64,000 bases of DNA from an uncultured Gammaproteobacteria bacterium (GCA_964404855.1 CAYOLO010000002.1:131494-195493), one strand, 5' to 3'. Positions 41,641 through 62,941 are shown, numbered from the stretch's first letter. The notes: generated by a model not told the origin, from the letters alone. A program made the numbers and translations.

Positions 41641-41670
41641 TTTATATCATTTTTGAAGCTAAATGTCAAA
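41641..41670 (-). promoter_or_regulatory. family promoter copy A (minus strand: tagtaTTTGACA-17-TATAAA)
   Basis: -35 TTGACA (+ 41665-41670 as tgtcaa), 17-nt spacer tttagcttcaaaaatga, -10 at 41641-41646. Confidence 0.55.
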
Positions 41671-41703
41671 TACTAGAGGATACTTTTCTTTTTAAGAAAC
41701 GAG

Positions 41704-41846
41704 GTTTTTCAATTACTTTAATTAGCACATCAAAAATCCCCGCGTGATTTTTGATTCTCACTTTTTGTTCACTCTTTTGCTTGTGCAAAAACCATGCTCG
41801 TTCACAAAAAGAGGTCTAATTAAAGTAATTGAGGGATTAAATGACA
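41704..41846. repeat. conserved ~140-bp intergenic element, copy A
   Basis: About 85-90% identical to copies at 42571-42710 and 43974-44113. Contains hairpin caaaaatc-cccgcgt-gatttttg and stem ttttgc/gcaaaa at 41775-41790. Confidence 0.7.
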
Positions 41847-41854
41847 AAAAAAAA

Positions 41855-41880
41855 GAGCCCTCCTTTTTAGGGGAGGGCTT
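41855..41880 (-). terminator. family terminator hairpin GCCCTCC-TTTTTAGG-GGAGGGC plus T9 (minus-strand sense)
   Basis: 17 nt downstream of the stop of 41897..42415. Identical hairpins at 42745, 61966 and 62648. Confidence 0.7.
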
Positions 41881-41896
41881 GAGGAAAGGACGAGGA

Positions 41897-42415
41897 CTAC
41901 CACGTTGTGAGGGGTGTTCGCCCCGCAGACGCGGCTTGCTCGAATTGCTTTAACGCAAAGCTTTCGTCCGCTTCGGAATCGAAGAAGACTTTGAATTGCT
42001 GGGTTGGAACGTCGAAGTGAACAACCACAAGGCGCGCTTCGGTTTGGGTAAAGCCGCCAACGGCACCTTCGAGCGCATAGTCGACGACTGATCCCAGATT
42101 GAAGGACGCGTAAAGACAGATTGGCCGACTACCGTGTTTGTTAACGTAGTCGACGGCCGCGCCTAGAGCGTGTATATAAGCCTGCTCTGGCCTAAGGATG
42201 TTGATGTCCTCGTAGCGCATAAGTGGCGTACAGTTCTCGACGAGCGTCAGATCGCCGCGATTACTGAACAGCGTGAGATGACGCATACCTTGCGGCAAGA
42301 TGTCGAGGAGGCTGGGTGCTGGCTGGGTCGCATGTGATCCTGTCTTTTTAAGGAACAGAAAAACTGTCACAACAGCTACGACTACCAGACTGGTTACGAC
42401 AAGCGAGATGAACAA
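41897..42415 (-). CDS. GC-rich membrane-anchored hypothetical protein (172 aa), unit 3
   Basis: N-terminal TM (FISLVVTSLVVVAVVTVFLFL) followed by a soluble domain with no recognisable motif. About 56% GC. Confidence 0.55.
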   Translation of the reverse strand: MFISLVVTSLVVVAVVTVFLFLKKTGSHATQPAPSLLDILPQGMRHLTLFSNRGDLTLVENCTPLMRYEDINILRPEQAYIHALGAAVDYVNKHGSRPICLYASFNLGSVVDYALEGAVGGFTQTEARLVVVHFDVPTQQFKVFFDSEADESFALKQFEQAASAGRTPLTTW

Positions 42416-42483
42416 AGCTTATGGGGCTCCTTTTAGCTAAATGTGCTTCTGAGTGAGTTTTTACACTTACCCAATTGTTGTAA

Positions 42484-42511
42484 TTATATCATATTTTGAG
42501 CCTATAGTAAA
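42484..42511 (-). promoter_or_regulatory. family promoter copy C (diverged -35 TTTACT, 16-17 nt spacer, TATAAT)
   Basis: -10 at + 42484-42489 (attata), with spacer ...ctcaaaatatga similar to the other copies. Confidence 0.4.
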
Positions 42512-42570
42512 GAATCTGGTGAAATCTAATTTTAATATTACACAGTAGGGTTTTCTACTTTGTAGAAACA

Positions 42571-42710
42571 GTTTTTTCAATCCCCTTTCTTGGCACGTTC
42601 AAAATCCCTGCGAGATTTTTCTCTTTCACTTTTTGCTCGCTCTTTTGTCTTACAGACAAAAACCATGCCCACTACGCAAAAAGAGATCCAAGAATGAGAA
42701 TTGAGAGATA
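42571..42710. repeat. conserved ~140-bp intergenic element, copy C
   Basis: Same element. The covarying stem here is ttttgtct/agacaaaa (42643-42661). Confidence 0.7.
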
Positions 42711-42744
42711 TGAATTATGAAAATGAAGTCAAGCAAGAAGAAGC

Positions 42745-42772
42745 CCTCCTTTTTAGGGGAGGGCTATGGGCG
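42745..42772 (-). terminator. family terminator hairpin GCCCTCC-TTTTTAGG-GGAGGGC
   Basis: Downstream of the glpX stop (42798). Confidence 0.7.
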
Positions 42773-42797
42773 GATTGGTTTGTGAAGCGAACCGAGA

Positions 42798-43733
42798 CTA
42801 GTTGTCACGATCCCAATTGTGTTCGGTCTCGATCCGGCGAATAGTGCCGGTGAGGCCTCGCATCACGACTGAGTGACTGACCGTCACTCCGTGCGCCAGA
42901 GGCTGGATGCCTTGAAGCATGGTACCGTTGGTCACGCCTGTGGCCGCGAAATATGTATCCTGACTGGACACGAGATCGTCAAGGTTCATGACCCTGTTGG
43001 GGTCAATCCCCTTTTCGAGAATGGCACGCCGTTCTTCATCGCGAGAGATGAATGGCCGGCACTGCATGTCGCCGCGGAGAGCGATGATACCGCAGGCAGC
43101 CGTGACAGCCTCAGGCGACCCACCGCTGCCAAGCAGCATGTGAGCACCTGTGCCTGGCATGCAGGCAACCAGAGCGCCGGCAATGTCGCCGTCGCCAATG
43201 AGGTTGATGCGTGCACCCGCTGCCCGAACAGCTTTGATGATTTCGTTGTTGCGATCCCTTTTGAGGATGGTGACAACGACGCTGTTGACGGGAATGTCGA
43301 GAGCCTTGGCAACCTGCTCGATGTTCCAAGCGACCGGAGCGGTGATGTCGATTTTGCCCTTGGCTTCCTTGCCCACGACAATCTTGTCGAGGTAAAAGAA
43401 GTCACGGACGTCGATCATGGTCCCGCCTGGTGCGGCGGCGATAACAGCGATGGAACCTTCTCGCCCTTCGGAGAGAATGGTCGTCCCGTCGACTGGGTCG
43501 ACAGCAACATCCATCTTGGGTCCATTGCCGTTGCCGACCACTTGGCCGTTGAACAGCATCGGAGCTTCGTCTTTTTCGCCTTCGCCGATTCTGACGATAC
43601 CGTCCATGTCGACCGTGGCAAGCATGGCGTTCATGGCGTCGACGGCGGCTTGGTCGGCACCAATCTTGTCACCAAGACCGAACCAACGGACGGCACCGAG
43701 AGCGGCAGCTTCGGAAACCCGAATGAGCTCCAT
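42798..43733 (-). CDS. glpX: class II fructose-1,6-bisphosphatase (GlpX-type FBPase/SBPase)
   Basis: MELIRVSEAAALGAVRWFGLGDK...DGIVRIGEGEKDEAPML...VDPVDGTT...IGDGDIAGAL...LLGSGGSPEAV is colinear with GlpX. The ORF-track start at 43916 lies upstream of this unit's own promoter, so the start was set to the conserved MELIRV Met. About 58% GC. Confidence 0.8.
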   Translation of the reverse strand: MELIRVSEAAALGAVRWFGLGDKIGADQAAVDAMNAMLATVDMDGIVRIGEGEKDEAPMLFNGQVVGNGNGPKMDVAVDPVDGTTILSEGREGSIAVIAAAPGGTMIDVRDFFYLDKIVVGKEAKGKIDITAPVAWNIEQVAKALDIPVNSVVVTILKRDRNNEIIKAVRAAGARINLIGDGDIAGALVACMPGTGAHMLLGSGGSPEAVTAACGIIALRGDMQCRPFISRDEERRAILEKGIDPNRVMNLDDLVSSQDTYFAATGVTNGTMLQGIQPLAHGVTVSHSVVMRGLTGTIRRIETEHNWDRDN

Positions 43734-43887
43734 CCCGATATTGCGATCGGGCGTGGGAGTGTAGTTCCTGACCTTGAGTGGTCCGGAAGGGATGACGAGG
43801 GTTTGTGCCGATGTAATGGGTTTGGTTCTCCTTCTCCAAATAAATGAGCTGTAACGGACGTCCGTAACGGTTGTCCAAAACGGCGAA

Positions 43888-43916
43888 ATCTTACCACTTT
43901 TGAAGCTGTATGTCAA
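43888..43916 (-). promoter_or_regulatory. family promoter copy B (tagtaTTTGACA-17-TAAGAT)
   Basis: -35 at + 43911-43916 (tgtcaa), spacer tacagcttcaaaagtgg, -10 at 43888-43893. Confidence 0.5.
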
Positions 43917-43973
43917 ATACTACGGGCCTAAATAATAGTTATTTTGGAAAATATTAGTTTTTAATTACAAATT

Positions 43974-44113
43974 GTTTTCAATCCACTTTCTTGGCACACC
44001 AAAAATCCCAGCGTGATTTTTGTTTTTCACTTTTTGTTTGTTCTTTTGCTTGTTAAGCAAAAACCATGCCCACTCACAAAAAGAGATCCAAGAAAGTAAA
44101 TTGAGGGATAGTG
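43974..44113. repeat. conserved ~140-bp intergenic element, copy B
   Basis: Same element. The covarying stem here is tttgctt/aagcaaa (44044-44062). Confidence 0.7.
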
Positions 44114-44151
44114 AAAAAACAGATAGGAAGTTTGGAGTATTAAAGACAAGA

Positions 44152-44180
44152 AAAAGCCCTCGGGGTGAGCCGAGGGCTGG
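44152..44180 (-). terminator. family terminator variant GCCCTCGG-GGTGAGC-CGAGGGC plus T-run
   Basis: Immediately downstream of the stop at 44204. Same outer stem as the main family. Confidence 0.6.
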
Positions 44181-44203
44181 GGGGTGAACTTGGGAGGTGT
44201 TGG

Positions 44204-44716
44204 CTAGGCCAACGCGAGACTGGCGCGACGCATCAGCGAGACGACGTCGCCGCCTTGGGGCATGCCTTCTTCGAAGCGCTCGATGGCGTCGCAGTAGGGT
44301 TTGTCGGCGAGATACTCGTCGGTATGGATCCGCATCAAAAACGGAACGATTTCCGTGATGGCGGAGCTGTTGCCGTGGACTACTTCGCCTCCCCGCTTGT
44401 GGCGGAAGAAGAACGAATAACCAATGGTCAGCTCGGTTTCGAGCAGCCACTCGTCGGTCTCGAGGTCGGAAACGTGGAGCCTGCCGGTCTTGACGGACTC
44501 ATTACGGTTAATGAGCACGCCGTTCTCGGTCAGGAGATACATGTTGCCGCTTCGGCTGGTAAGCAGAACGGCGTTGAACTTGTCCCCACCGAGGAGCATT
44601 GCACCTTCACTGAACATGTCGCTCAGCCTGAAGACCCTGTCCGAATTGGCTCGGTCGATCCGATGGGCAAGGTGGTTACCCTTAACCTGGACCAGAATTG
44701 CTTCGGCGCTAGCCAA
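44204..44716 (-). CDS. GC-rich hypothetical protein (170 aa), unit 1
   Basis: TTG start with AGAGG RBS. No recognisable motif. The overlapping + strand ORF 44165..44746 is judged an antisense artefact. Confidence 0.5.
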   Translation of the reverse strand: MASAEAILVQVKGNHLAHRIDRANSDRVFRLSDMFSEGAMLLGGDKFNAVLLTSRSGNMYLLTENGVLINRNESVKTGRLHVSDLETDEWLLETELTIGYSFFFRHKRGGEVVHGNSSAITEIVPFLMRIHTDEYLADKPYCDAIERFEEGMPQGGDVVSLMRRASLALA

Positions 44717-44751
44717 AGTGTCTACACCTCTTTCTTAATGTTCTAAGGTAT

Positions 44752-44780
44752 ATTATACCATATTATAGGCTTATTTTCAA
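44752..44780 (-). promoter_or_regulatory. sigma70-type promoter for unit 1 (TTGAAA-17-TATAAT, minus strand)
   Basis: + strand tttcaa at 44775-44780 and attata at 44752-44757. Confidence 0.45.
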
Positions 44781-44802
44781 TTCTGATTAAATGAAAATGG
44801 TC

Positions 44803-44836
44803 ACAAAAAACCCGCCTCACAGGACGGGTCTTTTGT
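44803..44836 (-). terminator. rho-independent terminator of tuf
   Basis: Minus-strand gacccgtcc-tgtgag-gcgggtttttt. Confidence 0.6.
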
Positions 44837-44958
44837 TTAAGTTGTTGCTTATATTAAGCGATTACTTAGTTATAGATGCTCGCCAAAATTCGTTTAATTT
44901 CTGCCGCTGGCAAAATTGCACTCAGTTTTGGCTACGCTCTTTCACAAAGCTACTTGCC

Positions 44959-46140
44959 TTAGGCAATTACCTTTGTGATGACTCCAGCACCTACGGTGTG
45001 GCCACCTTCGCGGATAGCAAAACGTAGACCTTCTTCCATAGCGACAGGTACGATGAGTTTGATTGTCATCTTGACTGTGTCACCAGGCATAACCATTTCG
45101 GTTCCTTCTGGAAGTTTAGCTTCACCAGTTACGTCAGTTGTACGGACGTAGAACTGTGGGCGGTATCCAGAGAAGAATGGAGTGTGGCGTCCACCTTCTT
45201 CTTTGGTGAGGATATAAACCTCAGCTTCGAATTCGGTGTGAGGGGTGGAAGTTCCTGGTTTAGTAAGAACTTGTCCACGCTCGACGTCGTCTTTTTCAAC
45301 TCCACGAAGTAGAACTCCAACGTTGTCTCCAGCTTGACCTTCGTCTAGCTGTTTGTTGAACATTTCGACTCCTGTGACGGTAGATTTCTTGATCGGGTTG
45401 ATACCAACGATTTCGATTTCTTCACCGACTTTGACAACTCCTCTTTCGATACGTCCTGTAACAACAGTTCCACGACCTTTAATCGAGAAAACGTCTTCGA
45501 CAGGCATCAAAAATGGCTTGTCAGTGTCGCGTTCAGGTGTTGGAACGAATTCGTCAACAGCTTTAAGCAATTCTTCGATACTCTTAACCCCTTCAGCGTC
45601 TCCTTCGAGAGCTTTGAGTGCAGAACCGCGAATAATCGGGGTTGTGTCTCCAGGGTATTGATACTTGGTCAAAAGTTCACGAATTTCCATCTCGACTAGA
45701 TCAAGAAGTTCTGGATCTTGAACCATATCAACCTTGTTCATAAAAACAACGATTGAAGGTACACCAACTTGACGTGCTAGCAAAATATGCTCGCGAGTCT
45801 GTGGCATTGGACCATCTGGAGCGGAAACAACAAGAATAGCACCGTCCATTTGAGCGGCACCGGTAATCATGTTCTTGATGTAGTCAGCGTGACCAGGGGC
45901 ATCAATGTGTGCGTAGTGTCTAGCTTCTGTCTCGTACTCAACGTGAGCGATAGAAATAGTAATACCACGCTGTCTTTCTTCAGGTGCCTTGTCGATTTGA
46001 TCGAAGGCTTTGAAGTTTGCCATTCCTTTGTCGGATTGGACTTTTGTAATAGCAGCAGTTGTAGTTGTTTTACCGTGGTCGACGTGACCGATGGTACCAA
46101 CGTTAACGTGCGGCTTGGTTCTTTCGAATTTGTCAGCCAT
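44959..46140 (-). CDS. tuf: elongation factor Tu
   Basis: [25 protein letters not shown]-motifs. 393 aa. Confidence 0.95.
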
Positions 46141-46270
46141 TTTTGGTTTTTCTCCTTAAATTAAACTTATATAAATAAGCCAAAAAAGCTCCTTTGCAAT
46201 TGAAGCTTTTTTTGGGCTTGTGTATTATTCAAATTACTACACGGTTTGTCAATATATAAAGTCTCTATGG

Positions 46271-47077
46271 CTAGTTGGCTAAACATTTGCCGGCGGAGTA
46301 GATTCGGGAGAAAATATTGTTCGATATCAAAAAATGATCCAATTTTGCCATAAGCAGGTTTTGCTTAGCCTCGTCTTGAGATTTGCAGCTTAGAATAAAT
46401 TGTTCAACAAAATAAACAATCGTGAGCAGTTTGGTGAGATTGGAATTAATGAATACCCCATTTTGGGTTAGTTTTTGAACAATCAGATCAAAATCCAGTG
46501 AAAAACCATCCGCAAAAAGTAGTGAATTACAAAACTCATATTCGAGAGGTCCAAATTGGAAGTGTTCAAAATCAATTATTTTAACCCCTGAATCGGTAAT
46601 GATCAGGTTGCCAATATGTAGATCTCGGTGCAGTGGTTGTGAAGGGAAATTGTCCCAGTCTACTCTGTTTATATAATCGATAATTTGGGTTATTTTCCCC
46701 GTTCGATCAGACCCGAGTTTTTGCCGTAAGACACGGATATTTGACTGAAATTGGCTCTTATTTGCTTGCAGATAATTGATCCATTCTGTGTTACCGGATA
46801 ATTGAGTCTTGTTGAGCTTAGTAATAATATCTGAAAGCTGGTCGCATATTAGCGGTTTGTTTATCTGGTCATTACTCTTTAGTTTGTCAAAAATCGTCAA
46901 ACGACCCAGACGAAAAACAATTTTCGGCGCACTACCCGGACTATTGAAATAGAAAGTATTGATTCCTAATTCCTCTCTTCTGGCTAGTTCGGCGGATGTG
47001 TAGAACTTGAGAATGAATTTGTCCATTACATCAATCACGTTGTGTACTCCCCTTCCGGTTTGGATTAATTTGATCAT
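46271..47077 (-). CDS. APH/ChoK-fold phosphotransferase (aminoglycoside-phosphotransferase-like kinase family)
   Basis: Brenner motif HRDLHIGNLII and IDFE(H) metal-binding motif. 268 aa. Confidence 0.65.
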   Translation of the reverse strand: MIKLIQTGRGVHNVIDVMDKFILKFYTSAELARREELGINTFYFNSPGSAPKIVFRLGRLTIFDKLKSNDQINKPLICDQLSDIITKLNKTQLSGNTEWINYLQANKSQFQSNIRVLRQKLGSDRTGKITQIIDYINRVDWDNFPSQPLHRDLHIGNLIITDSGVKIIDFEHFQFGPLEYEFCNSLLFADGFSLDFDLIVQKLTQNGVFINSNLTKLLTIVYFVEQFILSCKSQDEAKQNLLMAKLDHFLISNNIFSRIYSAGKCLAN

Positions 47078-47084
47078 TGATGTG

Positions 47085-47804
47085 TTAAATTTTTAAGTCG
47101 AAGAGTACACTTGGGAATTTTGGATTGAGTGTAAAAGCTTCGGCATATTCATTCTCTTTGCTGCGCCTAAGATGATAACCGCGGACACACGAAAGTGACT
47201 TCTCGAATACAGTTGATTTTGAATCAGCCTGAGACTCGTAAATACCGAATAGCTGCATCTTCTGATCAATATAATCAGTGATATCGACCAAAACCTGCGG
47301 CACTATCGGCAACATACCTTCACCATACAGAACGATAGGTGTGCGGTGAGGATCACCTAGTTCTGGTTTGACTCCGGTAGCGGACCAAAAGGAAGCCTCT
47401 TCGACGACATGAGCCGCTTCTCGGTGGTCAGAGTGGTAGTCAAGCGGATTCATAGTAAAAATCACTTCCGGCCTAACTTGTCTAATTATTTTGACTACTT
47501 TGAACATTAGTTTTTTGGAAAACTGAAGATTGAGGTCTTCTTCGGCAAGTAGGAATTTTTGTTTTAGACCCAAAAATTCAGTCGCTTTGTCAAATTCTCC
47601 CTCGCGCAAGTTAATAACCGTATTTTTCGCACTCTTTGATCCGTTTCGTCTATCTCTGCCCTCTTGAGAGTTAGTCAGCAGTATTTCGTAGGCATTGAAT
47701 CCTTGATTTTGGAGCTTGAATACACTGCCGGCACAGGTAATGTGATCGTCGGCGTGAGCTGAAACGATAAGTATATTTTTGGTACTAATGGGTTTTTTGG
47801 ACAT
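47085..47804 (-). CDS. PIG-L/LmbE-family N-acetylglucosaminyl deacetylase
   Basis: ILIVSAHADDHITCAGS zinc-binding motif, plus HSDHREA. Confidence 0.75.
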   Translation of the reverse strand: MSKKPISTKNILIVSAHADDHITCAGSVFKLQNQGFNAYEILLTNSQEGRDRRNGSKSAKNTVINLREGEFDKATEFLGLKQKFLLAEEDLNLQFSKKLMFKVVKIIRQVRPEVIFTMNPLDYHSDHREAAHVVEEASFWSATGVKPELGDPHRTPIVLYGEGMLPIVPQVLVDITDYIDQKMQLFGIYESQADSKSTVFEKSLSCVRGYHLRRSKENEYAEAFTLNPKFPSVLFDLKI

Positions 47805-47815
47805 GTTCCTCCTTT

Positions 47816-49822: not shown

Positions 49823-49844
49823 ATTTTGGCTATAAAAAAACCTC

Positions 49845-49915
49845 CCGGTGTGGGAGGTTGTTTGGCTTTTATTTAAAGCTGTGGCTCTTTAGATAAGAGA
49901 CCTCCCACATGAAGA
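49845..49915 (-). promoter_or_regulatory. terminator/antiterminator-like leader upstream of the 668-aa gene
   Basis: Minus-strand 5'-tgtgggagg...(40 nt)...cctcccacacc-gggagg-ttttttt. The central cctcccaca can pair either with upstream tgtgggagg or with downstream gggagg, which is the terminator followed by T7. Confidence 0.4.
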
Positions 49916-50033
49916 AATGCGCAAAAAGCGCATCCAGGTCTGGTGGAGATAAATACAGTTAGAATTCAAATTTTGTACAGATAGAATATCCATAGTTGAA
50001 GTAGATAATACGATTGGGATAATGATTTGTCAA

Positions 50034-50396: not shown

Positions 50397-50420
50397 GCCC
50401 CCGGGGGTTAGCCGAGGGCG
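50397..50420 (-). terminator. family terminator variant GCCCCCGG-GGGTTAG-CCGAGGGC
   Basis: Downstream of the stop at 50448. Same arm sequence as the variant at 44152. Confidence 0.5.
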
Positions 50421-50447
50421 AATAAAGGGTGGTGGCAAAAGCTGTGG

Positions 50448-50993
50448 CTAGTTGCCCAGCCAGCTGCCGTGTGTGCCGATGATCTGCGTACCGTCGCGGA
50501 ACACGACCATGTCGTGGCTCGCACTAAAAATCCGCTTGCGCTGATCCTTGACTTCCAGCTTGAGGACCCAGCCGTTGAAGGACTGGGCCTGGACGTAGAC
50601 TCGGACCTGGCCGATCGGATTGGTCCTGATGTACTTCAGCCGATTGTTGATGATCTTGGTCGCGTCGAAGTTGACGACTTGGGCGCTGGCCAGGGTCATT
50701 TTTTCGAGGCTTGCAAGAAGAGTCTCCTCTGCAACGTTGGCATTGTCTACCTTAGCCATCTCCTCGCGGAATTTGGCAATGGCAAGCTCAAGCGGTTGGT
50801 CTTGGAGGTCAATGGCGAGGGTGGAGAAGATCGTCAGGACGACTGTCCTGTCTGCGTACGCGGCTTCAACAAGCCGAGTCAGCGTCCTCACACCGTGAGT
50901 ACGTCCGACGACCTCAAACATATACGGAAGCTGAAGTCCGTATGGAATGAGATCTTCGACCGAAGGGTATATTGTCCTTTTTTTGCGGGGCAA
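50448..50993 (-). CDS. GC-rich hypothetical protein (181 aa) directly downstream of fusA
   Basis: About 57% GC. TTG start with AGGAAG RBS. No recognisable motif. The + strand ORFs 50469..51029 and 50620..50898 are antisense artefacts. Confidence 0.5.
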   Translation of the reverse strand: MPRKKRTIYPSVEDLIPYGLQLPYMFEVVGRTHGVRTLTRLVEAAYADRTVVLTIFSTLAIDLQDQPLELAIAKFREEMAKVDNANVAEETLLASLEKMTLASAQVVNFDATKIINNRLKYIRTNPIGQVRVYVQAQSFNGWVLKLEVKDQRKRIFSASHDMVVFRDGTQIIGTHGSWLGN

Positions 50994-51028
50994 ACTTCAC
51001 TTCCTTTTTCAGGTGCGATTTACAGCTA

Positions 51029-51057
51029 ATTATAACCTATAATAATGTAAATTGCAA
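51029..51057 (-). promoter_or_regulatory. sigma70-type promoter for the 50448..50993 unit (TTGCAA-17-TATAAT)
   Basis: + strand attata at 51029-51034 and ttgcaa at 51052-51057. Sits between the fusA stop and the GC-rich ORF. Confidence 0.45.
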
Positions 51058-54170: not shown

Positions 54171-57100
54171 TTAAGCTGCGTCAACCTCACCTTCTGCGGG
54201 AATGTTGTCGACGATAGCGCGATCGACTGAAGTTGGAATCAGGCGTCCAATAATTACGTTTTCCTTCATACCTAATAATGGATCAACTTTACCTTCAGAA
54301 GCAGCCTGTGTTAGGACATTGGTAGTTTCCTGGAACGAAGCGGCTGACAAGAAGCTTTCTGTGTAAAGAGAAGCTCTGGTGATACCTAAAATTACCAACT
54401 CTGCGGTAGCAGGCTCACCGCCTTCGGCGATTGTTTTGGCATTTTCGTACTCATATACATGCTTAGCAATGTGTTCGCCAGGCAGGAATTTGGTGTCACC
54501 TGAGGAGGTAATTTTGACTTTCTCACTCATCTTGCGAATGATGACTTCGAAGTGCTTGTCGTCGATAGGTACACCTTGGGCCTCATAAACACTCTGCGCT
54601 TCGTCGGCGATGTATTTTTGAGCTTCACGCAAACCTTTGACTCTTAGAATTTCTTTAACGTCAAGATGACCTTTTGAAAGCGGTTCTCCGGCTTTTATAG
54701 TGTCGCCGGTAGTGATATTAAGATCTTCAGTCAAAGGCAAGAGGTACTGTTTTTCGGTGACGGGTTTTTCGGAACCTTTGATCGTGATAACAAAACCCTC
54801 AGCAGTCTCATCAACTGTGACCTTACCGGTTATTTCAGCAATCGGCGCGGAAACTTTGGGTGTTCGGGCCTCAAGCAGTTCTTCAACACGCGGTAGACCT
54901 TGGGTAATATCGGTTCCAACAATACCTCCGGTGTGGAAGGTTCTCATTGTCAGCTGTGTTCCCGGCTCACCAATACTTTGAGCGGCGATGACACCAACCG
55001 GCGTACCGATCTCAACTAGTTTGCGGGTTGAAGTGTCCCGACCGTAACAAAGTGCACAAAGTCCAATCGTAGCTTCACAAGTCAACGGCGAGCGGACGAT
55101 AATTTCATCAGCTGAGTCGGCGACTTTTTTGGCGGTAGTGAGATCGAGAAGGTCTCCGGCTTTTGCCACACCTTTGACGTCTTTAGCAAGAACCATACCA
55201 ATAATTCGATTCTCAAAAGCTGCACGGCGAGCCGGATCGGTTTTGAAAACAGTTATACCTTCCTTGGTACCACAGTCAAGCTGACGAATGATTACGTCGT
55301 GAGAAACATCAACCAAACGTCGAGTTAGATATCCTGACTCAGCTGTACGCAGAGCACGGTCTGCCAGACCTTTTCTGGCACCACGACTCGAGGTGAAGTA
55401 CTCAAAGACACTTAACCCCTGGCGGAAATTACTCTTGGTTGGAAGAGGAACAATCTTACCGGAAGGGTCTTGAACCAAACCTTTCATACCCGAAAGCTGT
55501 TTAATTTGGTCTGAAGATGCACGACTTCCACCTGAATCAGAAATCATTTTGACCGAGTTGTCGTTTTTGATCGCCGCCCAGGTCTTCTGGTACACGACAT
55601 CGGTTGTTTCTGTCCAGATGTCGTTGGTTAGGCGACGCTTTTCTGCTTCGGTGATCAGACCGTCGTCGAATTTCTTTTCGATTTCGTCAACGCGCTTATC
55701 TGCTTCAGCGATAATTTCGTCCTTTTCGGGCACGATCTCATTATCAAAAACAGAGACAGACAGACCGGAGACCGTAGCGAACCTGAATCCGATATTTTTG
55801 ACGTTGTCGATTAGTTTAAGCAGTTCTTCTTCTGTCAGGTTCTCAAGATGAGCACTGATTGTGGATTTAATTGTCGAGTTGCGGAAAGTCTCGTTAAGGA
55901 ATGGAATTTTGTCTGGCAACATGCGGTTGAAATTGATTCGACCGACAGTAGTCTCTACAACCTTGTCCTCCATTCTAACTTTGATTGGCTGACGCATGCC
56001 GATTTTGCCGTTCTGCCAAGCAAAAATCGCCTCTTCAGAGTCAACAAAAATCGTGTCAACCGGCTGAGCATCTTCATCGATCGAAGTGATGTAGTAAGCT
56101 CCAAGTGCCATTTCCTTGTTGGGGATCGTGATTGGAGTACCATCAGCTGGACGAAGAATATTCTGTGAAGCCATCATCAAACGACGCGCTTCAGCTTGTG
56201 CGTCGCTAGATAGCGGAACGTGGACTGCCATTTGGTCTCCGTCAAAGTCAGCGTTAAATCCTGCACAGATACAAGGGTGAATTCTAATTGCGTCACCTTC
56301 GATTAGTACCGGATAGAAGGCTTGAATACCAAGCTTGTGAAGAGTTGGAGCACGGTTAATCAAAACCGGGTGTTCACGGGTAATTTCTTCAAGAATATCC
56401 CAAACTTCGGGCGGTCTTTTCTCAAGTACGTGTTTTGCGCTCTTAACGTTAGGAGCCAGCCCAAGACCGATGAGGTCGCGAAGAACGAAAGGTTTGAACA
56501 TTTCAAGAGCCATTTCCTTGGGGATACCCACCTGGTCAAGATCGAGTTCCGGACCAACAACGATAACCGATCGTCCAGAGTAGTCAACACGCTTACCTAG
56601 AAGATTCTGACGGAATCTTCCCTGCTTACCGCGTAACATGTCAGAGAGGGAACGTAGCTCAGCCTGAGTTGTGCGAGTAGTGGTTGAACGGGAATTAGTA
56701 TCAATGAGAGCGTCAACTGCTTCCTGCAACATACGCTTTTCGTTGCGAAGAATGATTTCCGGTGCACCGAGGTCAATTAGTTTTTTGAGACGATTATTGC
56801 GGTTGATCACGCGACGGTATAGATCGTTAAGGTCACTTGTTGCAAAACGTCCACCGGATAGCTGGACCATCGGACGAAGATCGGGCGGAAGAACCGGAAG
56901 GACAGTAAGAACCATCCAAGTCGGGTCGATATCTGCCTTGCGCATACCTTCGGCAACTCTTAAACGCTTAGCGGCTTTGATATGTTTGATACCGGAGACT
57001 TCAGTAAGCTCTTTTCTTAGATCAGTAACAAGTGCGTCAAGATCGATGTTTTCAAGAATAGTCTTAATGGCTTCTGAACCCATTCCGACTTTGAGGAATG

Positions 57101-57869
57101 ATGCGACACCGAGATAATCGAGTGTTAAGTAGTCTTCCTCGGAAAGCAGGTTGAGGGGCTTGACTGAGGACATTAATTTCTCGAGCTTTTTGTACTTTTC
57201 TTCGATTTTGGCGAGTTCAATGCTGTGTGCATCACGAAGCAAAGCAATTTTGTGACGAGAAGCTAATTCCATCTCTTCGACTTTGAGGTCGAGATTGCTT
57301 TTTTCTTTAGTTTTTTTGACTTCTTTTACCTCTGCTTCGGATTCTTTTTTGACTGCACCGATTTGTTCTTCAAGAACCTTGACAGCCGAAGCGATTTCTT
57401 TTTCCTGAAGAGTTTTGAGTTTTTCTATGTCTTCTTTGCGCTTCTCAGGATCAAGGGAAATAACAATATAACTAGCAAAATAAATGACTGCATCAAGACT
57501 GCGCGGAGAAATATCCAGTAGTAAGCCGAGTTTGCTGGGCGCACCACGGAAGAACCAACTGTGAACGACAGGAGCTGAAAGAGACAAGTGCCCCATTCTT
57601 TCGCGGCGGACGCGTGCCTGAGTTACTTCAACGCCACATTTTTCACAAATAATACCGCGGAATCTGATCCTCTTGTATTTACCACAGTAACATTCCCAGT
57701 CTTTGACTGGTCCAAAAATACGCTCATCAAAAAGACCATCCTTCTCTGGTTTGAGGGTACGATAGTTGATGGTTTCCGGTTTGGTAATCTCTCCATGAGA
57801 CCATTCTTTGATATTTTCCGGTGAAGCTAGAGTGATTTTTAGTGCTTTGAAATCAAGCAGGGCTTTCAT
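54171..57869 (-). CDS. rpoC: DNA-directed RNA polymerase subunit beta'
   Basis: Zn finger CYCGKYKRIRFRGIICEKCGVEV and NADFDGDQMAVH catalytic motif. Confidence 0.95.
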   Translation of the reverse strand: MKALLDFKALKITLASPENIKEWSHGEITKPETINYRTLKPEKDGLFDERIFGPVKDWECYCGKYKRIRFRGIICEKCGVEVTQARVRRERMGHLSLSAPVVHSWFFRGAPSKLGLLLDISPRSLDAVIYFASYIVISLDPEKRKEDIEKLKTLQEKEIASAVKVLEEQIGAVKKESEAEVKEVKKTKEKSNLDLKVEEMELASRHKIALLRDAHSIELAKIEEKYKKLEKLMSSVKPLNLLSEEDYLTLDYLGVASFLKVGMGSEAIKTILENIDLDALVTDLRKELTEVSGIKHIKAAKRLRVAEGMRKADIDPTWMVLTVLPVLPPDLRPMVQLSGGRFATSDLNDLYRRVINRNNRLKKLIDLGAPEIILRNEKRMLQEAVDALIDTNSRSTTTRTTQAELRSLSDMLRGKQGRFRQNLLGKRVDYSGRSVIVVGPELDLDQVGIPKEMALEMFKPFVLRDLIGLGLAPNVKSAKHVLEKRPPEVWDILEEITREHPVLINRAPTLHKLGIQAFYPVLIEGDAIRIHPCICAGFNADFDGDQMAVHVPLSSDAQAEARRLMMASQNILRPADGTPITIPNKEMALGAYYITSIDEDAQPVDTIFVDSEEAIFAWQNGKIGMRQPIKVRMEDKVVETTVGRINFNRMLPDKIPFLNETFRNSTIKSTISAHLENLTEEELLKLIDNVKNIGFRFATVSGLSVSVFDNEIVPEKDEIIAEADKRVDEIEKKFDDGLITEAEKRRLTNDIWTETTDVVYQKTWAAIKNDNSVKMISDSGGSRASSDQIKQLSGMKGLVQDPSGKIVPLPTKSNFRQGLSVFEYFTSSRGARKGLADRALRTAESGYLTRRLVDVSHDVIIRQLDCGTKEGITVFKTDPARRAAFENRIIGMVLAKDVKGVAKAGDLLDLTTAKKVADSADEIIVRSPLTCEATIGLCALCYGRDTSTRKLVEIGTPVGVIAAQSIGEPGTQLTMRTFHTGGIVGTDITQGLPRVEELLEARTPKVSAPIAEITGKVTVDETAEGFVITIKGSEKPVTEKQYLLPLTEDLNITTGDTIKAGEPLSKGHLDVKEILRVKGLREAQKYIADEAQSVYEAQGVPIDDKHFEVIIRKMSEKVKITSSGDTKFLPGEHIAKHVYEYENAKTIAEGGEPATAELVILGITRASLYTESFLSAASFQETTNVLTQAASEGKVDPLLGMKENVIIGRLIPTSVDRAIVDNIPAEGEVDAA

Positions 57870-60800
57870 TATTTGTCTTCTCCTTCTTTTTCATCCTCGT
57901 CCGAGGAAGTACTTTCTTCTAGTTCGGTGAGTTCAGCTTCTGCCTCGGCGTCTTCAGCCGATTCGTCTTCAGTAATTTCGTTTTCTGCTTCGACACTCTT
58001 GATGTCAGGAACGATTTCGGAAAGAATTTCTTCTTCAGCGACATCGGCTTTGGCTTCGACTTTTTCTTCGGGTTTGCCGTCTTCGGATTTGTCTGACTCG
58101 TCAATGATCGTAGCACCTAAAGCTTCGACATTGAGTGAAAGCGATTGAAGTTCTTTGACAAGGACTTTGAATGATTCCGGAATTTGAGGAGTTGGAATAT
58201 CGGTTCCTTTGACTATAGCTTCGAATGCTTTTGGTCGGCCGACAATGTCGTCGGACTTAATCGTTAACATTTCCTGAAGGATGTGGGCGGCACCGTAAGC
58301 TTCGAGAGCCCAAACCTCCATTTCTCCAAGACGCTGTCCACCCATTTGAGCTTTACCACCGAGTGGCTGCTGAGTAATGAGTGAGTAGGGTCCGGTAGAA
58401 CGTGCGTGAGTCTTGTCCTCAACCATGTGGATAAGTTTGAGAATATAACTAGTTCCGACAACGATCGGACGATCGAATGCTTCACCCGTGCGGCCGTCGT
58501 AGAGAGTAGTTTTACCGTTGACCGGCAGACCGGCTTTGCCAAACTGTTCGACAATGACATCCTCGTCAACCTCTTCGAATACAGGAAGGGCTACTTTGTA
58601 ACCGAGTTTTTCGGCACTAACTCCAAGGTGGGCCTCCATCAATTGGCCAAGGTTCATACGAGCAAGAACAGACAAAGGACTAATGATGATATCAACAGGC
58701 TTGCCTTCTGCTGTGTGTGGCATATCAGCTTCGGGAACAATCTTTGAGATGACACCTTTGTTTCCGTGGCGACCACAAAGTTTGTCTCCAACAACGACTT
58801 TGCGCATTTGAGCAATTTTGACGGTAATCTTTTTGATCGCACCAGGCTCCAATTCGTCACCGGCGGCACGTGATAAGACTTTGATTCCGATAACGGTACC
58901 GCGCTCACCGTGAGGAACTCTCAAGGAAGTATCTCTGACCTCGCGGGCTTTTTCACCAAAAATTGCGCGTAGCAGACGCTCCTCAGCAGTAAGCTCGGTC
59001 TCACCTTTTGGAGCAATTTTTCCAACAAGAATATCGTTAGGTCCGACTTCTGCACCGATAACAATAACTCCGTCTTCGTCGAGGTTGGCTAGATCTTCTT
59101 CAGAAACGTTTGGGATATCGCGTGTGGTCTCTTCTGGTCCGAGCTTGGTGTCAACAACAACTGCGGTGTGTTCTTCGATGTGAACAGAGGTCAAAAGATC
59201 ACTCTTAACGAGGCGGTCGGAAATAACAATAGCGTCTTCGTACCCCAAACCGTCGTAACTCATGTAAGCAATGGTTAGGTTCTGTCCGAGTGCTAATTCT
59301 CCGCCCTCTGAAGCTGGACCATCAACCAGAACATCGCCTGCTTTGAAGCTGTCGCCGGTATAAACAAATGGTCTCTGTGAGTAACAAGTAGATTGCTGCG
59401 AACGAACGAATTTTTTGATCGGGTAGGTAACCAGCTCTTTTTCGCCAGCGTAGCGAACTACGACTTTGTTGGCGTCAGCGAATTCGACTTTACCGTCTTT
59501 TTCGGCGGTAATAACCCGACCCATTGTTACCGAAACTGGATTTTCCATACCTGTACCAATAATCGGTGAGTGAGGGATAAGAAGCGGTACTGCCTGACAC
59601 TGCATGTGTGTACCCATCAAAGCACGGTTAGCATCGTCGTGGCTAAGGAATGGAATAAGCGAAGCTGATGTACCAATGATCTGGCGAGGAATAATATCGA
59701 TATAGTCTACGTCGGTAGCTAGTGCGGTAGTGAATTCACCCATGTGGCGAACCGGAACACGGTTTTCGACGATTGTACCGTCTTTTGCTAGCTCTATTTC
59801 TGAATGAGTGATGATGGCTTCATCCTCGTCGTCAGCAGTGATATAAACGATTTCGTCGGTTACGACAGCCTTGTCGCCTTTTTTGACCACTTTGCGATAA
59901 GGTGCTTCGATAAAACCTAATTCGTTGATACGGGCATAAAGAGCAAGATAGGTAACCAGACCAATGTTCGGACCTTCAGGACTTCTGACTGGGCAAATAC
60001 GTGAATACTGCGAGGAGTTGATATCGCGAATCGAGAAAGCTGCTCTTTCACGGGTAATACCGCCCGTACCCATAACTGACAGTCTGCGCATTGTGTCAAC
60101 TTCGGCCAGAGGATTAGTCTGATCAAGAATTGTTGCCAACTGCGAAGTGCGGAAGAATTCGTTAATTGCAGACATAACAGGTCGGGCATTAACTAACGTA
60201 GCTGGTGTTGGTGGAATTTCCGGATTAGCTGTGGTCATTCTTTCGCGAATAACGCGCTCAAGACGAAGAATACCGACACGGAAGGCGTTCTGCTGAGTCA
60301 GTTCACCAACTGAGCGTACGCGGCGGTTACCAAGATGGTCAATGTCATCAACGCGGCCTTTGTTAAAACTCAGACCAATTAGGTAAGCAATTGAAGCAAG
60401 AAGGTCGGTTTTGTTGAGAATAAGAGGATTAGAATCTTCTGAATCAGCGGATTTGACTAGCGGTTTGATGTCTTTGAGCTTGCGGTCCATTTTGTAACGG
60501 CCGACTTCGGCGAGGTTGTAACGACGATCATTGAAGAACATTCCTTCAACCATAGCTCTGGCTGTATCGAGAACCAGAGGATCGCCGGGTCGCATACGGC
60601 GGTATATTTCCAGCAGAGCTTCGTCGGAGTTGGTAGTTGTGTCTTTTGCCAGGGTATTGTGAATAAAAGCCATCTCTTCTTCAGGTAAGAATTTGAAAGC
60701 TTCGATTATCTGTTCATCACTGCTGAGTCCGATCGCGCGCAAAAAGGTAGTAACCGGGAATTTGCGGCGGCGGTCGATTTTGACATTGATCGTGTCGGTA

Positions 60801-61318
60801 CGACTAAGTGAAAATTCGAGCCAGGAACCTCTAAGCGGACGAACCTCGGCTGTGTAGAGGATTTTTCCGGTACCGGGATCCATAGCTGCGGAGTAATAAA
60901 CACCAGGAGCTCGAACTAGCTGATGAACAATTGCACGCTCAACACCATTGACAATGAAAGTACCGCGTTCAAGCATTAGAGGGATATCACAGAGGAATAC
61001 TTCCTGATTGATTGTCTCTTCGGTTTGTTTGTTTGTGAGTTTGGCCTGAACTTTGAGTGGTGCGTCGTAGGTAAGGCCCTTTTCTACTGCTTCTTCCGGG
61101 GTAATGGCCGGCTTGCCAAGTGTTAATTTGGAGAATTCCAGTCGATAGTTCTTGCCGGTAACATCCTCGATAGGGCTGATCTCGCGGATAACTTCTTCTA
61201 GACCCGTGTCTAGGAATTTCTGGAATGATGTCTTGTGGATTTTGAGCAGATCAAGATTAGGAAGGTTGGGTGTCTGACGACCCCAATAAAGACGTGTTTT
61301 GTAATTTGTTTCAGCCAT
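57869..61318 (-). CDS. rpoB: DNA-directed RNA polymerase subunit beta (acidic C-terminal tail)
   Basis: Colinear with bacterial RpoB. Ends in ...SSDEDEKEGEDK. Its stop overlaps the rpoC start. Confidence 0.95.
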   Translation of the reverse strand: MAETNYKTRLYWGRQTPNLPNLDLLKIHKTSFQKFLDTGLEEVIREISPIEDVTGKNYRLEFSKLTLGKPAITPEEAVEKGLTYDAPLKVQAKLTNKQTEETINQEVFLCDIPLMLERGTFIVNGVERAIVHQLVRAPGVYYSAAMDPGTGKILYTAEVRPLRGSWLEFSLSRTDTINVKIDRRRKFPVTTFLRAIGLSSDEQIIEAFKFLPEEEMAFIHNTLAKDTTTNSDEALLEIYRRMRPGDPLVLDTARAMVEGMFFNDRRYNLAEVGRYKMDRKLKDIKPLVKSADSEDSNPLILNKTDLLASIAYLIGLSFNKGRVDDIDHLGNRRVRSVGELTQQNAFRVGILRLERVIRERMTTANPEIPPTPATLVNARPVMSAINEFFRTSQLATILDQTNPLAEVDTMRRLSVMGTGGITRERAAFSIRDINSSQYSRICPVRSPEGPNIGLVTYLALYARINELGFIEAPYRKVVKKGDKAVVTDEIVYITADDEDEAIITHSEIELAKDGTIVENRVPVRHMGEFTTALATDVDYIDIIPRQIIGTSASLIPFLSHDDANRALMGTHMQCQAVPLLIPHSPIIGTGMENPVSVTMGRVITAEKDGKVEFADANKVVVRYAGEKELVTYPIKKFVRSQQSTCYSQRPFVYTGDSFKAGDVLVDGPASEGGELALGQNLTIAYMSYDGLGYEDAIVISDRLVKSDLLTSVHIEEHTAVVVDTKLGPEETTRDIPNVSEEDLANLDEDGVIVIGAEVGPNDILVGKIAPKGETELTAEERLLRAIFGEKAREVRDTSLRVPHGERGTVIGIKVLSRAAGDELEPGAIKKITVKIAQMRKVVVGDKLCGRHGNKGVISKIVPEADMPHTAEGKPVDIIISPLSVLARMNLGQLMEAHLGVSAEKLGYKVALPVFEEVDEDVIVEQFGKAGLPVNGKTTLYDGRTGEAFDRPIVVGTSYILKLIHMVEDKTHARSTGPYSLITQQPLGGKAQMGGQRLGEMEVWALEAYGAAHILQEMLTIKSDDIVGRPKAFEAIVKGTDIPTPQIPESFKVLVKELQSLSLNVEALGATIIDESDKSEDGKPEEKVEAKADVAEEEILSEIVPDIKSVEAENEITEDESAEDAEAEAELTELEESTSSDEDEKEGEDK

Positions 61319-61635
61319 ACAAAGTAACTTTTTTAGTATAAAAAGATTCAGGCAGCACGAACAATATTTATATGTATAAAGGATTTCCTAGTTACCCGAG
61401 CCCTATTGCGAGGCGCAACCAAATAGAGTTGCTTTTGATGCTCAAATCTTTCAGACAAAAGACCACAAAACCACAGGAATTACTCCCCTGCTGTCAAGTG
61501 GTTAAGGGCAAATATATACGTATTTGCTGAATGTGTCAATAGTCTTTTTTATAGTTTCTTTTTAAAAAACAATTATTATATTTCCCTCTTCACTTTTTGA
61601 TGACTGGCAGTTTGTGTATTACCGGCCACTCATCA

Positions 61636-61707
61636 AGCTAGATTTTCAGATTTAGAAATCACTTGTTGTGTTGATTTGTATTTTATTTTTAAGGAATATC
61701 TGAAAAT
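61636..61707. repeat. 12-bp perfect inverted repeat (agattttcagat / atctgaaaatct) separated by 48 nt in the rpoB leader region
   Basis: Exact reverse-complement segments at 61636-61647 and 61696-61707. Confidence 0.5.
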
Positions 61708-61766
61708 CTAAAGCCGTTCAGAGGAAAATGTGATCAGTTTATGAGGAGCTTATTTTCTCCTTTTTC

Positions 61767-61928
61767 TTATGGCTTTTTTAGTTTTTTTAAGAAAAAGCCC
61801 CGTGGGTTGAGCACGGGGCGGGGTGTGGATTGGTCAGCCTGCCAAGGCAACAAAGTAGAGCACAGAATACGACCGCGCGCCCTATCGGGTTTATCGGACA
61901 TGTTCCAGAACGCCCTTGAACAGGTCAT
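61767..61928 (-). other. GC-rich ~150-nt transcription unit: candidate sRNA or 53-aa ORF (MTCSRAFWNMSDKPDRARG...), its 3' end spanning the 61796-61830 terminator
   Basis: Minus-strand -10 TATAAT at + 61948-61953, GC-rich segment 61830-61945, then hairpin gccccgtg-ctcaaccc-acggggc plus TTTTTCTT. The ORF reads through the terminator hairpin. Confidence 0.3.
61796..61830 (-). terminator. rho-independent terminator (gccccgtg/cacggggc stem plus T-run)
   Basis: Hairpin followed by tttttctt on the minus strand. Confidence 0.5.
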
Positions 61929-61965
61929 CCACACCAGGTAATTATATTACCGCTGGTCAAATAAT

Positions 61966-61993
61966 AAAAAACCCTCCTTTTTAGGGGAGGGCT
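61966..61993 (-). terminator. family terminator hairpin (A)CCCTCC-TTTTTAGG-GGAGGG(T) plus T-run
   Basis: 18 nt downstream of the stop at 62011. Confidence 0.65.
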
Positions 61994-62010
61994 AAGAGGG
62001 TCGGAAGTTC

Positions 62011-62475
62011 CTACAGAGGGAGCGCCACCTTGCGTTCCCGCCGGTGTCGGACTCGGGTAAGAGCCGCGGCGATACCGTTGCGGATCGCCTGGAGCGGGGC
62101 GCGATGGCCGACCAGCTGCATCTTATCGTCGATGGTTTCCATGACCAGCTCGGCCTGCTCGGGGTCGAGCATGAAGCCGTTTTTGGGGTACCGCGGTTTG
62201 GGGGTAAAAACTCCCGGACCGCCGTACTCGAGCAGCTGAACTTCGACTCCGGCAGCTTCGTAGCCGTCGAGGGCGCCGACGTAGAGGTCGAGCGGTCCAT
62301 CGCAGTGCAATGCGATAACCTGGTCTCCTGTCATGGCAACCGCGTCCTCGAATGCGCGACGGTAAGCCTCCTCGTACGCTTGCTCCAGGTGGGTATCAGA
62401 CCGCCTGGCAAAGAGGTATCTGTCGACATTGTCGGGACTGAACGTCCGACTATGTACGTCGGGCAGAGGCGGCAT
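62011..62475 (-). CDS. GC-rich hypothetical protein (154 aa)
   Basis: About 62% GC. The ORF-track start (62634) lies upstream of this unit's own promoter (62532-62560), so the start was moved to the first ATG downstream of the TSS (MPPLPDV). No recognisable motif. Confidence 0.5.
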   Translation of the reverse strand: MPPLPDVHSRTFSPDNVDRYLFARRSDTHLEQAYEEAYRRAFEDAVAMTGDQVIALHCDGPLDLYVGALDGYEAAGVEVQLLEYGGPGVFTPKPRYPKNGFMLDPEQAELVMETIDDKMQLVGHRAPLQAIRNGIAAALTRVRHRRERKVALPL

Positions 62476-62531
62476 CACACAGATGATTCTCAAGTTTCTG
62501 TTTGAACTCCTTTTGGTAATGAACTGAGGCG

Positions 62532-62560
62532 AATTATACTTGTTTTTAGATAAAAAATCA
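62532..62560 (-). promoter_or_regulatory. family promoter copy D (ctagtaTTTGATT-17-TATAAT)
   Basis: + strand attata at 62532-62537 and aatcaa at 62555-62560. Confidence 0.5.
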
Positions 62561-62647
62561 AATACTAGAGGATAGTCTGACACATATTTAATTATTTTTT
62601 GAAAGGGATTTGTAGACTCTAGCTTTTTTGCCAAACCAGCAAAATAA

Positions 62648-62678
62648 AAGCCCTCCTTTTTAGGGGAGGGCTAGGGCG
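62648..62678 (-). terminator. family terminator hairpin GCCCTCC-TTTTTAGG-GGAGGGC
   Basis: 13 nt downstream of the stop of the 56-aa ORF. Confidence 0.65.
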
Positions 62679-62690
62679 GGAAGCTGAAGA

Positions 62691-62861
62691 TCACCTCAAC
62701 TCGTTGCAGATCACGGCGAACGAATCGCCGATCAGAGGAATACTGCTCTGGCATTCCTGAGCGACATTCGGACGCTCGGGCAGACCGATGAGACTGATTG
62801 CGACCAGCGCGATCGTAATGGCGACCAGAGTGGTTCCGAAAACACGGGTCAAGTTGGCCAT
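62691..62861 (-). CDS. GC-rich 56-aa single-TM peptide (MANLTRVFGTTLVAITIALVAISLIGLPERPNVAQECQSSIPLIGDSFAVICNELR)
   Basis: AAGGAG RBS 9 nt upstream of ATG, family promoter 47 nt upstream, family terminator downstream. Not in the ORF track (size). Confidence 0.5.
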   Translation of the reverse strand: MANLTRVFGTTLVAITIALVAISLIGLPERPNVAQECQSSIPLIGDSFAVICNELR

Positions 62862-62912
62862 GAACAAGGTCGTTTTCTCCTTAGAGGTAGTTGGTAATGT
62901 TCAGTGGAGACA

Positions 62913-62941
62913 ATTATACCGCATTTTAGGCAAAAAATCAA
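62913..62941 (-). promoter_or_regulatory. family promoter copy E (atagtaTTTGATT-17-TATAAT)
   Basis: + strand attata at 62913-62918 and aatcaa at 62936-62941. Confidence 0.5.

Follow-up and report, generated by a model that had tools for sequence, protein, structure and literature searches.

The window analysed here is a stretch of 64,000 nucleotides (nt) deposited as DNA of an uncultured Gammaproteobacteria bacterium (GCA_964404855.1, CAYOLO010000002.1:131494-195493). It raises the question of how single GC-rich genes, standing between tuf and rpsJ (units A-D) and upstream of rpoB (units E and F), come to be headed in five cases by near-identical promoters. The five sites, one before each of units B to F, are probably active, strong promoters of the sigma-70 type that form one reused module of about 44 nt, which would make the units autonomous.

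The promoter family in the window

The sequence TAGTATTTGA occurs exactly five times in the window against 0.26 expected, and five occurrences were reached in 0 of 100 shuffles; the numbers rule out a chance origin of its recurrence. Four of the exact occurrences lie on the minus strand (41666-41675, 43913-43922, 62558-62567 and 62938-62947), and each forms the 5' part of a near-consensus promoter whose -35 and -10 hexamers are 17 nt apart. The remaining one (40447-40456, plus strand) is located in the loop of the rpsJ-rplC hairpin, has no -10, is not kept in L014, L048 or L049 (L numbers designate contigs of relatives) and was set aside as a chance match. The promoter of unit C is a diverged copy, related to the family through its spacer (TAGGCTCAAAATATGA, against TAGCTTCAAAAATGA in the family). 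The five promoters are as follows.

41641-41683, minus strand: family promoter of unit D, gtatcctc TAGTAT TTGACA (41669), 17-nt spacer atttagcttcaaaaatga, TATAAA (to 41641), with TGa as extended -10
42483-42511, minus strand: diverged family promoter of unit C, TTTACT, 17-nt spacer ataggctcaaaatatga, TATAAT; kept in L001, L048 and L049
43888-43930, minus strand: family promoter of unit B (glpX), taggcccg TAGTAT TTGACA (43916), 17-nt spacer, TAAGAT; L001 has TATAAT
62533-62575, minus strand: family promoter of unit F, ctatcctc TAGTAT TTGATT (62561), 17-nt spacer, TATAAT
62913-62955, minus strand: family promoter of unit E, aagcccta TAGTAT TTGATT (62941), 17-nt spacer, TATAAT

Measured against the sigma-70/sigma-A pattern (near TTGACA, 16-18 nt, near TATAAT), four copies match at 10/12 and that of unit D at 11/12, all with the 17-nt spacer, and TGn stands directly 5' of the -10 in promoters B, C and D. 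Transcription would start about 7 nt after the -10, with which the placement of the 5' hairpin, the Shine-Dalgarno sequence and the ORF agrees. The distance from the promoter to the likeliest start codon is 38-70 nt in the five units, and 51-154 nt to the first ATG. In these respects the first-pass annotation, which had described a single family of five copies a short distance upstream of GC-rich open reading frames (ORFs), is borne out, and its promoter coordinates are correct within 1 nt. Its assignment of the family to every GC-rich unit was too broad: two of the seven units (A and G) use other promoters that lack TAGTAT. The same annotation placed four ORF starts upstream of their own transcription start. 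This holds for 43916, where the TTG is the -35 itself, and for 62634, but not for 42415 and 41543, which come after the -10, at distances of about 67 and 97 nt, respectively.

Among about 29 other promoter-like sites (10/12 or better) in the 64-kb window, none has TAGTAT 5' of the -35. Promoters without TAGTAT or the spacer motif include the likely ones of tuf, rpoB, rpsL, rpsJ, unit A and unit G. Inside the ORF 16131-16760, at about 16265-16300 on the minus strand, TAGAAATTGACTTAGCCCAAAAATG...GATAAA resembles the family. It precedes the RNase Y gene by about 270 nt and is probably a chance match, alternatively an internal promoter.

Module consensus and distribution among relatives

Contigs of relatives were recruited via identical EF-Tu and RpsJ, via GlpX homologues and by two pattern scans. 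The lineage DNA inspected amounts to about 110 kb (non-redundant), and the specificity of the promoter family was judged within it. Of the 25 loci retrieved from metagenomes by a degenerate promoter pattern, about half were chance matches in unrelated AT-rich contigs; loci were admitted to the family only if the CCyn prefix and the AGCyTCAAA spacer were present.

Consensus and per-position information content were derived from 14 module copies, a mixture of orthologues and paralogues that are not independent of each other. The consensus of the module of about 44 nt is CCynTAGTAwTTGACaTtTaGcyTCAAAa.tG.TAnAAT. Conservation beyond the hexamers covers CC at about -46, TAGTA at -41 to -37 and T.T.G..T.AAA in the spacer. 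It stops at about -48, and positions -48 to -60 are at background, with three alternative modules found there; TAGTA and CC form no A-tract, so that the UP element suggested in the annotation finds no support. Paralogues are 0.66-0.89 identical within the 44-nt module versus 0.44-0.63 in the 52 nt on each side, where the shuffle background for the comparison is 0.53 (maximum 0.65).

The family promoter is found at unit B also in L001, L048 and L049, at unit C in the same three contigs, and at unit D in L012, L013, L014 and L048, as well as one base shorter in L049. At unit E it recurs in L007 as TAGTACTTGACATTTAGCCTCAAATGCGATATAAT, with TTGACA and the spacer TTTAGCCTCAAAT; therefore the TTGACA and TTGATT 'subfamilies' of the window are one family. 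The B and D promoters of L048 match each other at 32/35 positions. Orthologous units of relatives have retained the module even where synonymous divergence is saturated. It also precedes other ORFs in L025/L031, L033 and L044, and no family copy is present in L008, L009 and L011, which are contigs of housekeeping genes. Within the inspected DNA the promoter family is specific, not generic.

The single-gene units

Each family promoter heads a single-gene unit that consists of a hairpin in the 5' untranslated region (5'-UTR), a strong Shine-Dalgarno (SD) sequence, a non-AUG start, a GC-rich ORF and an intrinsic terminator. The 5'-UTR hairpin of unit D is formed by CCTGTGGTT..AACCACAG, and L014 has CGTGG..CCACG instead. 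GC content at third codon positions (GC3) is 0.60-0.72 in the five family-promoter units and 0.60-0.76 in all seven units, versus 0.22-0.49 in 18 other genes of the window. The units are listed below.

41052-41570, minus strand: ORF of unit D, lineage-restricted orphan, GC3 about 0.65, probable ATT start
41897-42415, minus strand: ORF of unit C, 172 amino acids (aa) with a hydrophobic N-terminal segment, TTG start, GC3 0.60
42798-43817, minus strand: ORF of unit B, class II fructose-1,6-bisphosphatase (GlpX), GC3 0.67, ATT start after the SD
62011-62493, minus strand: ORF of unit F, orphan, GC3 0.72, probable TTG start; alternatives GTG 62478 and ATG 62475
62691-62867, minus strand: ORF of unit E, 58-aa hydrophobic peptide, TTG start, GC3 0.71; orthologue in L007
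44155-44780, minus strand: unit A, orphan ORF 44716-44204, GC3 0.76, non-family promoter TTGAAA..TGgTATAAT at 44780-44752, own terminator at 44178-44155
50397-51057, minus strand: unit G, ORF 50993-50448, GC3 0.71, non-family promoter TTGCAA..TATAAT at 51057-51029, terminator at 50419-50397

The unit proteins have no similarity to one another. Searches of Pfam, PHROG and NCBIfam gave no match for units A, C, D, E, F and G, and GlpX (unit B) is the sole assignment. Homologue searches with units A, D and F returned only a handful of relatives, all of high identity and evidently within the lineage. AlphaFold models were poor for A (predicted local distance difference test, pLDDT, 47) and moderate for D (pLDDT 65); with Foldseek, nothing in the PDB matched better than E = 1.3. 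The content of the sites differs by strain: L020 has an extra AT-rich ORF, L021 another ORF, L007 a unit X and no F, and L048 has no A.

An identical hairpin, GCCCTCCCCTAAAAAGGAGGG, followed by a T-run closes four of the five family-promoter units, whose genes are unrelated, and it recurs in relatives. The terminators of these units are located as follows.

41858-41878, minus strand: GCCCTCCCCTAAAAAGGAGGG hairpin and T-run, end of unit C
42744-42764, minus strand: GCCCTCCCCTAAAAAGGAGGG hairpin and T-run, end of unit B
61972-61992, minus strand: GCCCTCCCCTAAAAAGGAGGG hairpin and T-run, end of unit F
62651-62671, minus strand: GCCCTCCCCTAAAAAGGAGGG hairpin and T-run, end of unit E
40994-41026, minus strand: different hairpin, end of unit D; the rpsJ promoter follows

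The GCCCTCCCCTAAAAAGGAGGG hairpin was also seen in one viral contig only (IMG/VR UViG_3300037483_000162, L052 8316-8348), at the 3' end of an ORF. This ORF looks by eye like a capsid gene, and the contig may belong to a phage of the Curtissbacteria lineage. A short segment, CCAAACTTTCCTTTTGTTGACC, is found after many terminators.

Start codons

In GlpX the SD is followed 5-8 nt later by ATT (43817 in the window; L001; about 1134 in L048) or ATC (about 6126 in L049). From this ATT to the first ATG, all four differences between the window and L001 are at third positions. The interval encodes the conserved N-terminal stretch RNYTPTxDRNxGMEL and, in L001, is devoid of canonical starts. The N-terminal extension of GlpX is accordingly read from the alignments as coding. 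In unit D, GGAG is followed after 7 nt by ATT 41570. The internal Met (ATG 41543) is Leu in two relatives, and L014 has ATC at 241. The start of unit D is more probably ATT 41570 than 41543. In the remaining units (A, C, E, F and G) the codon placed after the SD is TTG. Bacterial AUU starts are known mainly from infC, and the initiation factor IF3 discriminates against AUU. The combination of a strong promoter with weak start codons would give high transcription and restrained translation.

Age, selection and origin of the units

Between the window and L048/L049, synonymous divergence (dS) is 1.1-2.5 for units B, C and D and 0.85 for A, versus 0.5-2.2 or saturation for rpsJ, rplC, rplD and rplB. 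The ratio of nonsynonymous to synonymous divergence (dN/dS) of the units is 0.08-0.40 in the same comparison, and 0.03 for GlpX versus L001; over all unit comparisons dS spans 0.4 to >2. A unit GC3 of 0.65-0.75 is held in all three lineages (window, L048 and L049), beside ribosomal genes at GC3 0.26-0.56. GlpX is 82-95% identical within the lineage and about 60-63% outside it, where the nearest sequences are labelled Dehalococcoidia/Chloroflexota and Gaiellales. No recent donor of the GC-rich genes was found, a question approachable for GlpX only.

The annotation had spoken of captured genes. The units are better regarded as old, functional residents than as recent captures, since they occupy the same positions in relatives and show purifying selection at dS of at least 1.1; moreover, three of the four tested are lineage-restricted orphans and not recognisable as imports. 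'Captured' would at best describe an ancient event, for GlpX.

Probable recombination at the 5' edge of the module

Upstream of the D promoter, three alternative sequences were found among strains whose unit D and rpsJ match those of the window at 93-99.8% identity. The first is the window's own repeat copy 3 (also in L020 and L029), one of the structured repeats described below. The second is a diverged repeat with the spacer ...ttaggcccg, which in the window is found before unit B (L012, L017, L021 and L035). The third is an unrelated module of about 210 nt (L013, L015 and L022). The alignments break at 41675 and 41679 of the window; TAGTA begins at the former, and the latter is 4 nt further upstream. 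These joints, together with the strain-variable unit content and the likeness of the B and D promoters in L048, point to ectopic homologous recombination among repeated modules, a process that could both shuffle units and keep their promoters alike.

Besides the structured repeat, an upstream module of about 210 nt (with ...acgcaggcttgtagctcaaac...) was observed to alternate with it before family promoters, at the following places.

L013 880-1090: upstream module of about 210 nt
L025 1890-2140: upstream module of about 210 nt
L001 12000-12095: upstream module of about 210 nt
L007 5390-5500: upstream module of about 210 nt

Identity around tuf (44100-47100) is mosaic. In comparison with L049, identity is about 100% for APH and PIG-L and 89% for tuf; with L001 it is 98% for tuf, 81% for fusA and 58% for APH. 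Either recombination or chimeric metagenome assemblies would account for this pattern.

The structured repeat

A repeat of about 150 nt is found 25-75 nt upstream of promoters B, C and D. In 14 distinct copies the repeat folds into a 16-pair closing stem around a second stem and two hairpins. Paired cells amount to 94.6% versus 82% in shuffles and 40-53% with slid partners, and 20 of the 42 pairs show changes on both sides versus 2-6 in slid controls. One-sided changes give U-G pairs on the gene-sense strand. The copies in the window and the other sites are listed below.

43957-44112, minus strand: repeat copy 1, separating the terminator of unit A from the promoter of unit B
42556-42712, minus strand: repeat copy 2, separating the terminator of unit B from the promoter of unit C; deleted in L001, L012 and L017
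41688-41840, minus strand: repeat copy 3, separating the terminator of unit C from the promoter of unit D
L007 3952-4105: repeat before the rpoB promoter
L009 3958-4109 and 5023-5175: repeats on both sides of dnaJ
L008, L011, L012, L020 and L049: further repeat sites

The repeat is not present in L048, nor at units E and F of the window. Rfam gave nothing at the gathering score for it, only noise at E values up to 5, and IMG/VR holds no copy of the repeat. Because repeat and family promoters occur without each other, the repeat is a separate dispersed element, previously undescribed and not the source of the promoter family. The loss of copy 2 (window 42564-42709 versus L001 13480-13520) resembles a deletion between ATTCTT direct repeats and leaves the 5' arm of the closing stem joined to the unit C promoter.

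Genomic setting

On the minus strand the window carries, in order, rpoB (61318-57869), rpoC, rpsL, rpsG, fusA, several accessory genes and tuf (46140-44959), followed by the four inserted units, rpsJ (40836-40528) and the S10 and spc operons. The chromosome is taken to be that of a Candidatus Curtissbacteria bacterium, and RpsJ is identical to the protein MBP6979545.1 deposited under that name. A 60-aa S14, the lack of L30 and short RpoB and RpoC would suit a host belonging to the Candidate Phyla Radiation (CPR). We take the title 'uncultured Gammaproteobacteria' on some related records of metagenome-assembled genomes to be a mislabel. Between unit F and the rpoB leader there is a GC-rich non-coding segment of about 150 nt (61790-61945, minus strand) with its own terminator, which is kept at L007 4885-5050. 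It may be a small RNA; Rfam gave no match for it.

Proposed mechanism and alternative explanations

In the explanation preferred here, the module would render each unit independent of the surrounding ribosomal operons. Promoter and terminator parts would have been reused by duplication and ectopic homologous recombination between units, and would be alike thereby. Additional functional selection would act on TAGTA, CC and the A-run of the spacer, reflecting either a common DNA-binding factor or a preference of the RNA polymerase of this lineage. Several points weigh against this explanation. The start sites are placed by match to consensus, and whether parts were reused by duplication or by ectopic recombination is read from the joints. 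The information content overstates the constraint, given 14 non-independent copies, and gene conversion alone could account for the extra conserved positions. Beyond the DNA inspected the module may be distributed more widely, also before ordinary genes. Unit B of L049 has lost the spacer motif AGCyTC and is still there, and the ORF downstream of the L033 promoter is not compositionally deviant.

Co-regulation, as suggested in the annotation, would make TAGTA, CC and the spacer T.T.G..TCAAAA the operator of one factor that switches units B-F together. This is possible, though we consider it doubtful as a full account, and it is compatible with promoter reuse, not exclusive of it. The conservation outside the hexamers persists in the copies of diverged genomes, the motif is missing from the other promoters of the window, and the TTGACA subfamily contains a weak dyad, ATTTGA-N9-TCAAAA. 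However, the dyad does not extend to the TTGATT subfamily, no regulator gene was identified nearby, unit B of L049 persists with its spacer motif replaced, and the ectopic recombination to which the joints point could homogenise copies without any operator. It is improbable that TAGTAwTTGACA... is simply the optimal promoter of the lineage, standing before many ordinary genes, as might be supposed from its near-perfect sigma-70 consensus and from L033 and L044, contigs of other composition in which the downstream ORF is not GC-deviant. The annotation had named occurrence at similar frequency before ordinary host genes as the mark of such a generic promoter. The motif is absent from the ordinary promoters of the 64-kb window, those of tuf, rpoB, rpsL, rpsJ and the other sites of at least 10/12 included, and the housekeeping contigs carry no family copy.

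Even less probable is a by-product of a mobile repeat, in which the promoters would be the outward end of the repeat of about 150 nt, as in a miniature inverted-repeat transposable element (MITE) or a Correia element. Units B and D are alike over about 200 nt of repeat and promoter, and a repeat copy precedes three of the five promoters. Yet the module occurs without the repeat at units E and F, in L025, L033 and L044 and at both promoters of L048, the repeat in turn stands without the module in L008 and L011, beside dnaJ in L009 and in front of the L007 rpoB promoter, and strains with the same promoter have different upstream DNA; this explanation is largely refuted. A dedicated gene-installing mechanism, with the promoter and terminator modules and perhaps the repeat as its parts or recombination sites, is unlikely. 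It would agree with the standardised flanks of the units, the strain-variable content at the tuf-rpsJ site and the site upstream of rpoB, the coincidence of joints with module edges and the conserved fold of the repeat. Against it, most units are syntenic over long divergence, homologous recombination at identical modules of 30-45 nt is enough for the joints, and neither integrase nor transposase was noticed in the window or the loci, where the ORFs examined were not exhaustive. It is slightly less unlikely, but still a long way from probable, that the standard parts of Curtissbacteria (promoter, terminator, weak non-AUG starts and repeat) make up a recombination-based cassette system with compositional maintenance, of an undescribed kind. 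Such a system would allow the best conserved gene cluster of the chromosome to take in single orphan genes, trade them among strains and express them, while some process upholds their GC3 at about 0.7 in an AT-rich genome, over times long enough to saturate synonymous sites.

Comparison with known systems

To our knowledge, almost nothing is known about transcription signals in CPR/Patescibacteria, and genetic tools are scarce. The module represents a defined, conserved and probably very strong promoter from a lineage of this group, and the terminator is its counterpart. The joint reuse of promoter and terminator, with joints at the module edges, makes the mechanics of reuse testable in population metagenomes. 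A puzzle is posed by orphan genes that hold GC3 near 0.7 under purifying selection, beside ribosomal genes at 0.26-0.49 and despite saturated synonymous divergence, and that have TTG or ATT/ATC as start codons. The analysis also uncovered a new structured repeat with strong covariation.

Phage morons are units of promoter, ORF and terminator with deviant composition, inserted between conserved phage genes. The units described here are likewise self-contained, GC-deviant, strain-variable and inserted between genes that are adjacent elsewhere (tuf and rpsJ). Unlike morons, they reside in a bacterial chromosome with rpoB/C, fusA, tuf and the S10 operon as neighbours, with no phage genes close by, have no match in PHROG, share one promoter and one terminator family, and are ancient. 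Phage DNA gave no match to repeat plus promoter, and IMG/VR no family promoter. Integron gene cassettes, which are promoterless and carry an attC site each next to an IntI integrase, were considered and rejected: every unit brings a promoter and a terminator of its own, the ORFs examined included no integrase, and the repeat is absent at E, at F and in L048.

In the sigma-70 promoters of Escherichia coli and Bacillus subtilis, TGn forms the extended -10, and the UP element, an A/T-rich tract at -40 to -60, has an A-tract consensus. The module resembles them in TTGACA, the 17-nt spacer and, in most copies, TGnTATAAT. It differs in TAGTA (-41 to -37) and CC (about -46), which are off the A-tract consensus, and in its conserved spacer, which is unusual. 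Repeats of the enterobacterial repetitive intergenic consensus (ERIC), Correia and repetitive extragenic palindromic (REP) types are dispersed, intergenic elements of about 130-150 nt with long terminal complementarity, located near promoters or within operons. The repeat of about 150 nt is also dispersed, intergenic and terminally complementary; its four-helix junction, in which all helices show compensatory changes and G-U pairs are confined to one strand, sets it apart from these types, and no transposase was identified for it.

The closest described concept is promoter reuse in prokaryotes. Putative mobile promoters, near-identical and standing before non-homologous genes, have been reported within and between genomes (Nijveen, Matus-Garcia and van Passel 2012, PMC3575422). 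Both features that define the published cases are found here: similarity ends at the promoter with unrelated genes downstream, and more than one genome is involved. The present case is unlike them in that the terminator is reused too, that the reused parts serve GC-deviant units in the core translation cluster of a CPR organism, and that the 5' edge of the module is a recombination joint.

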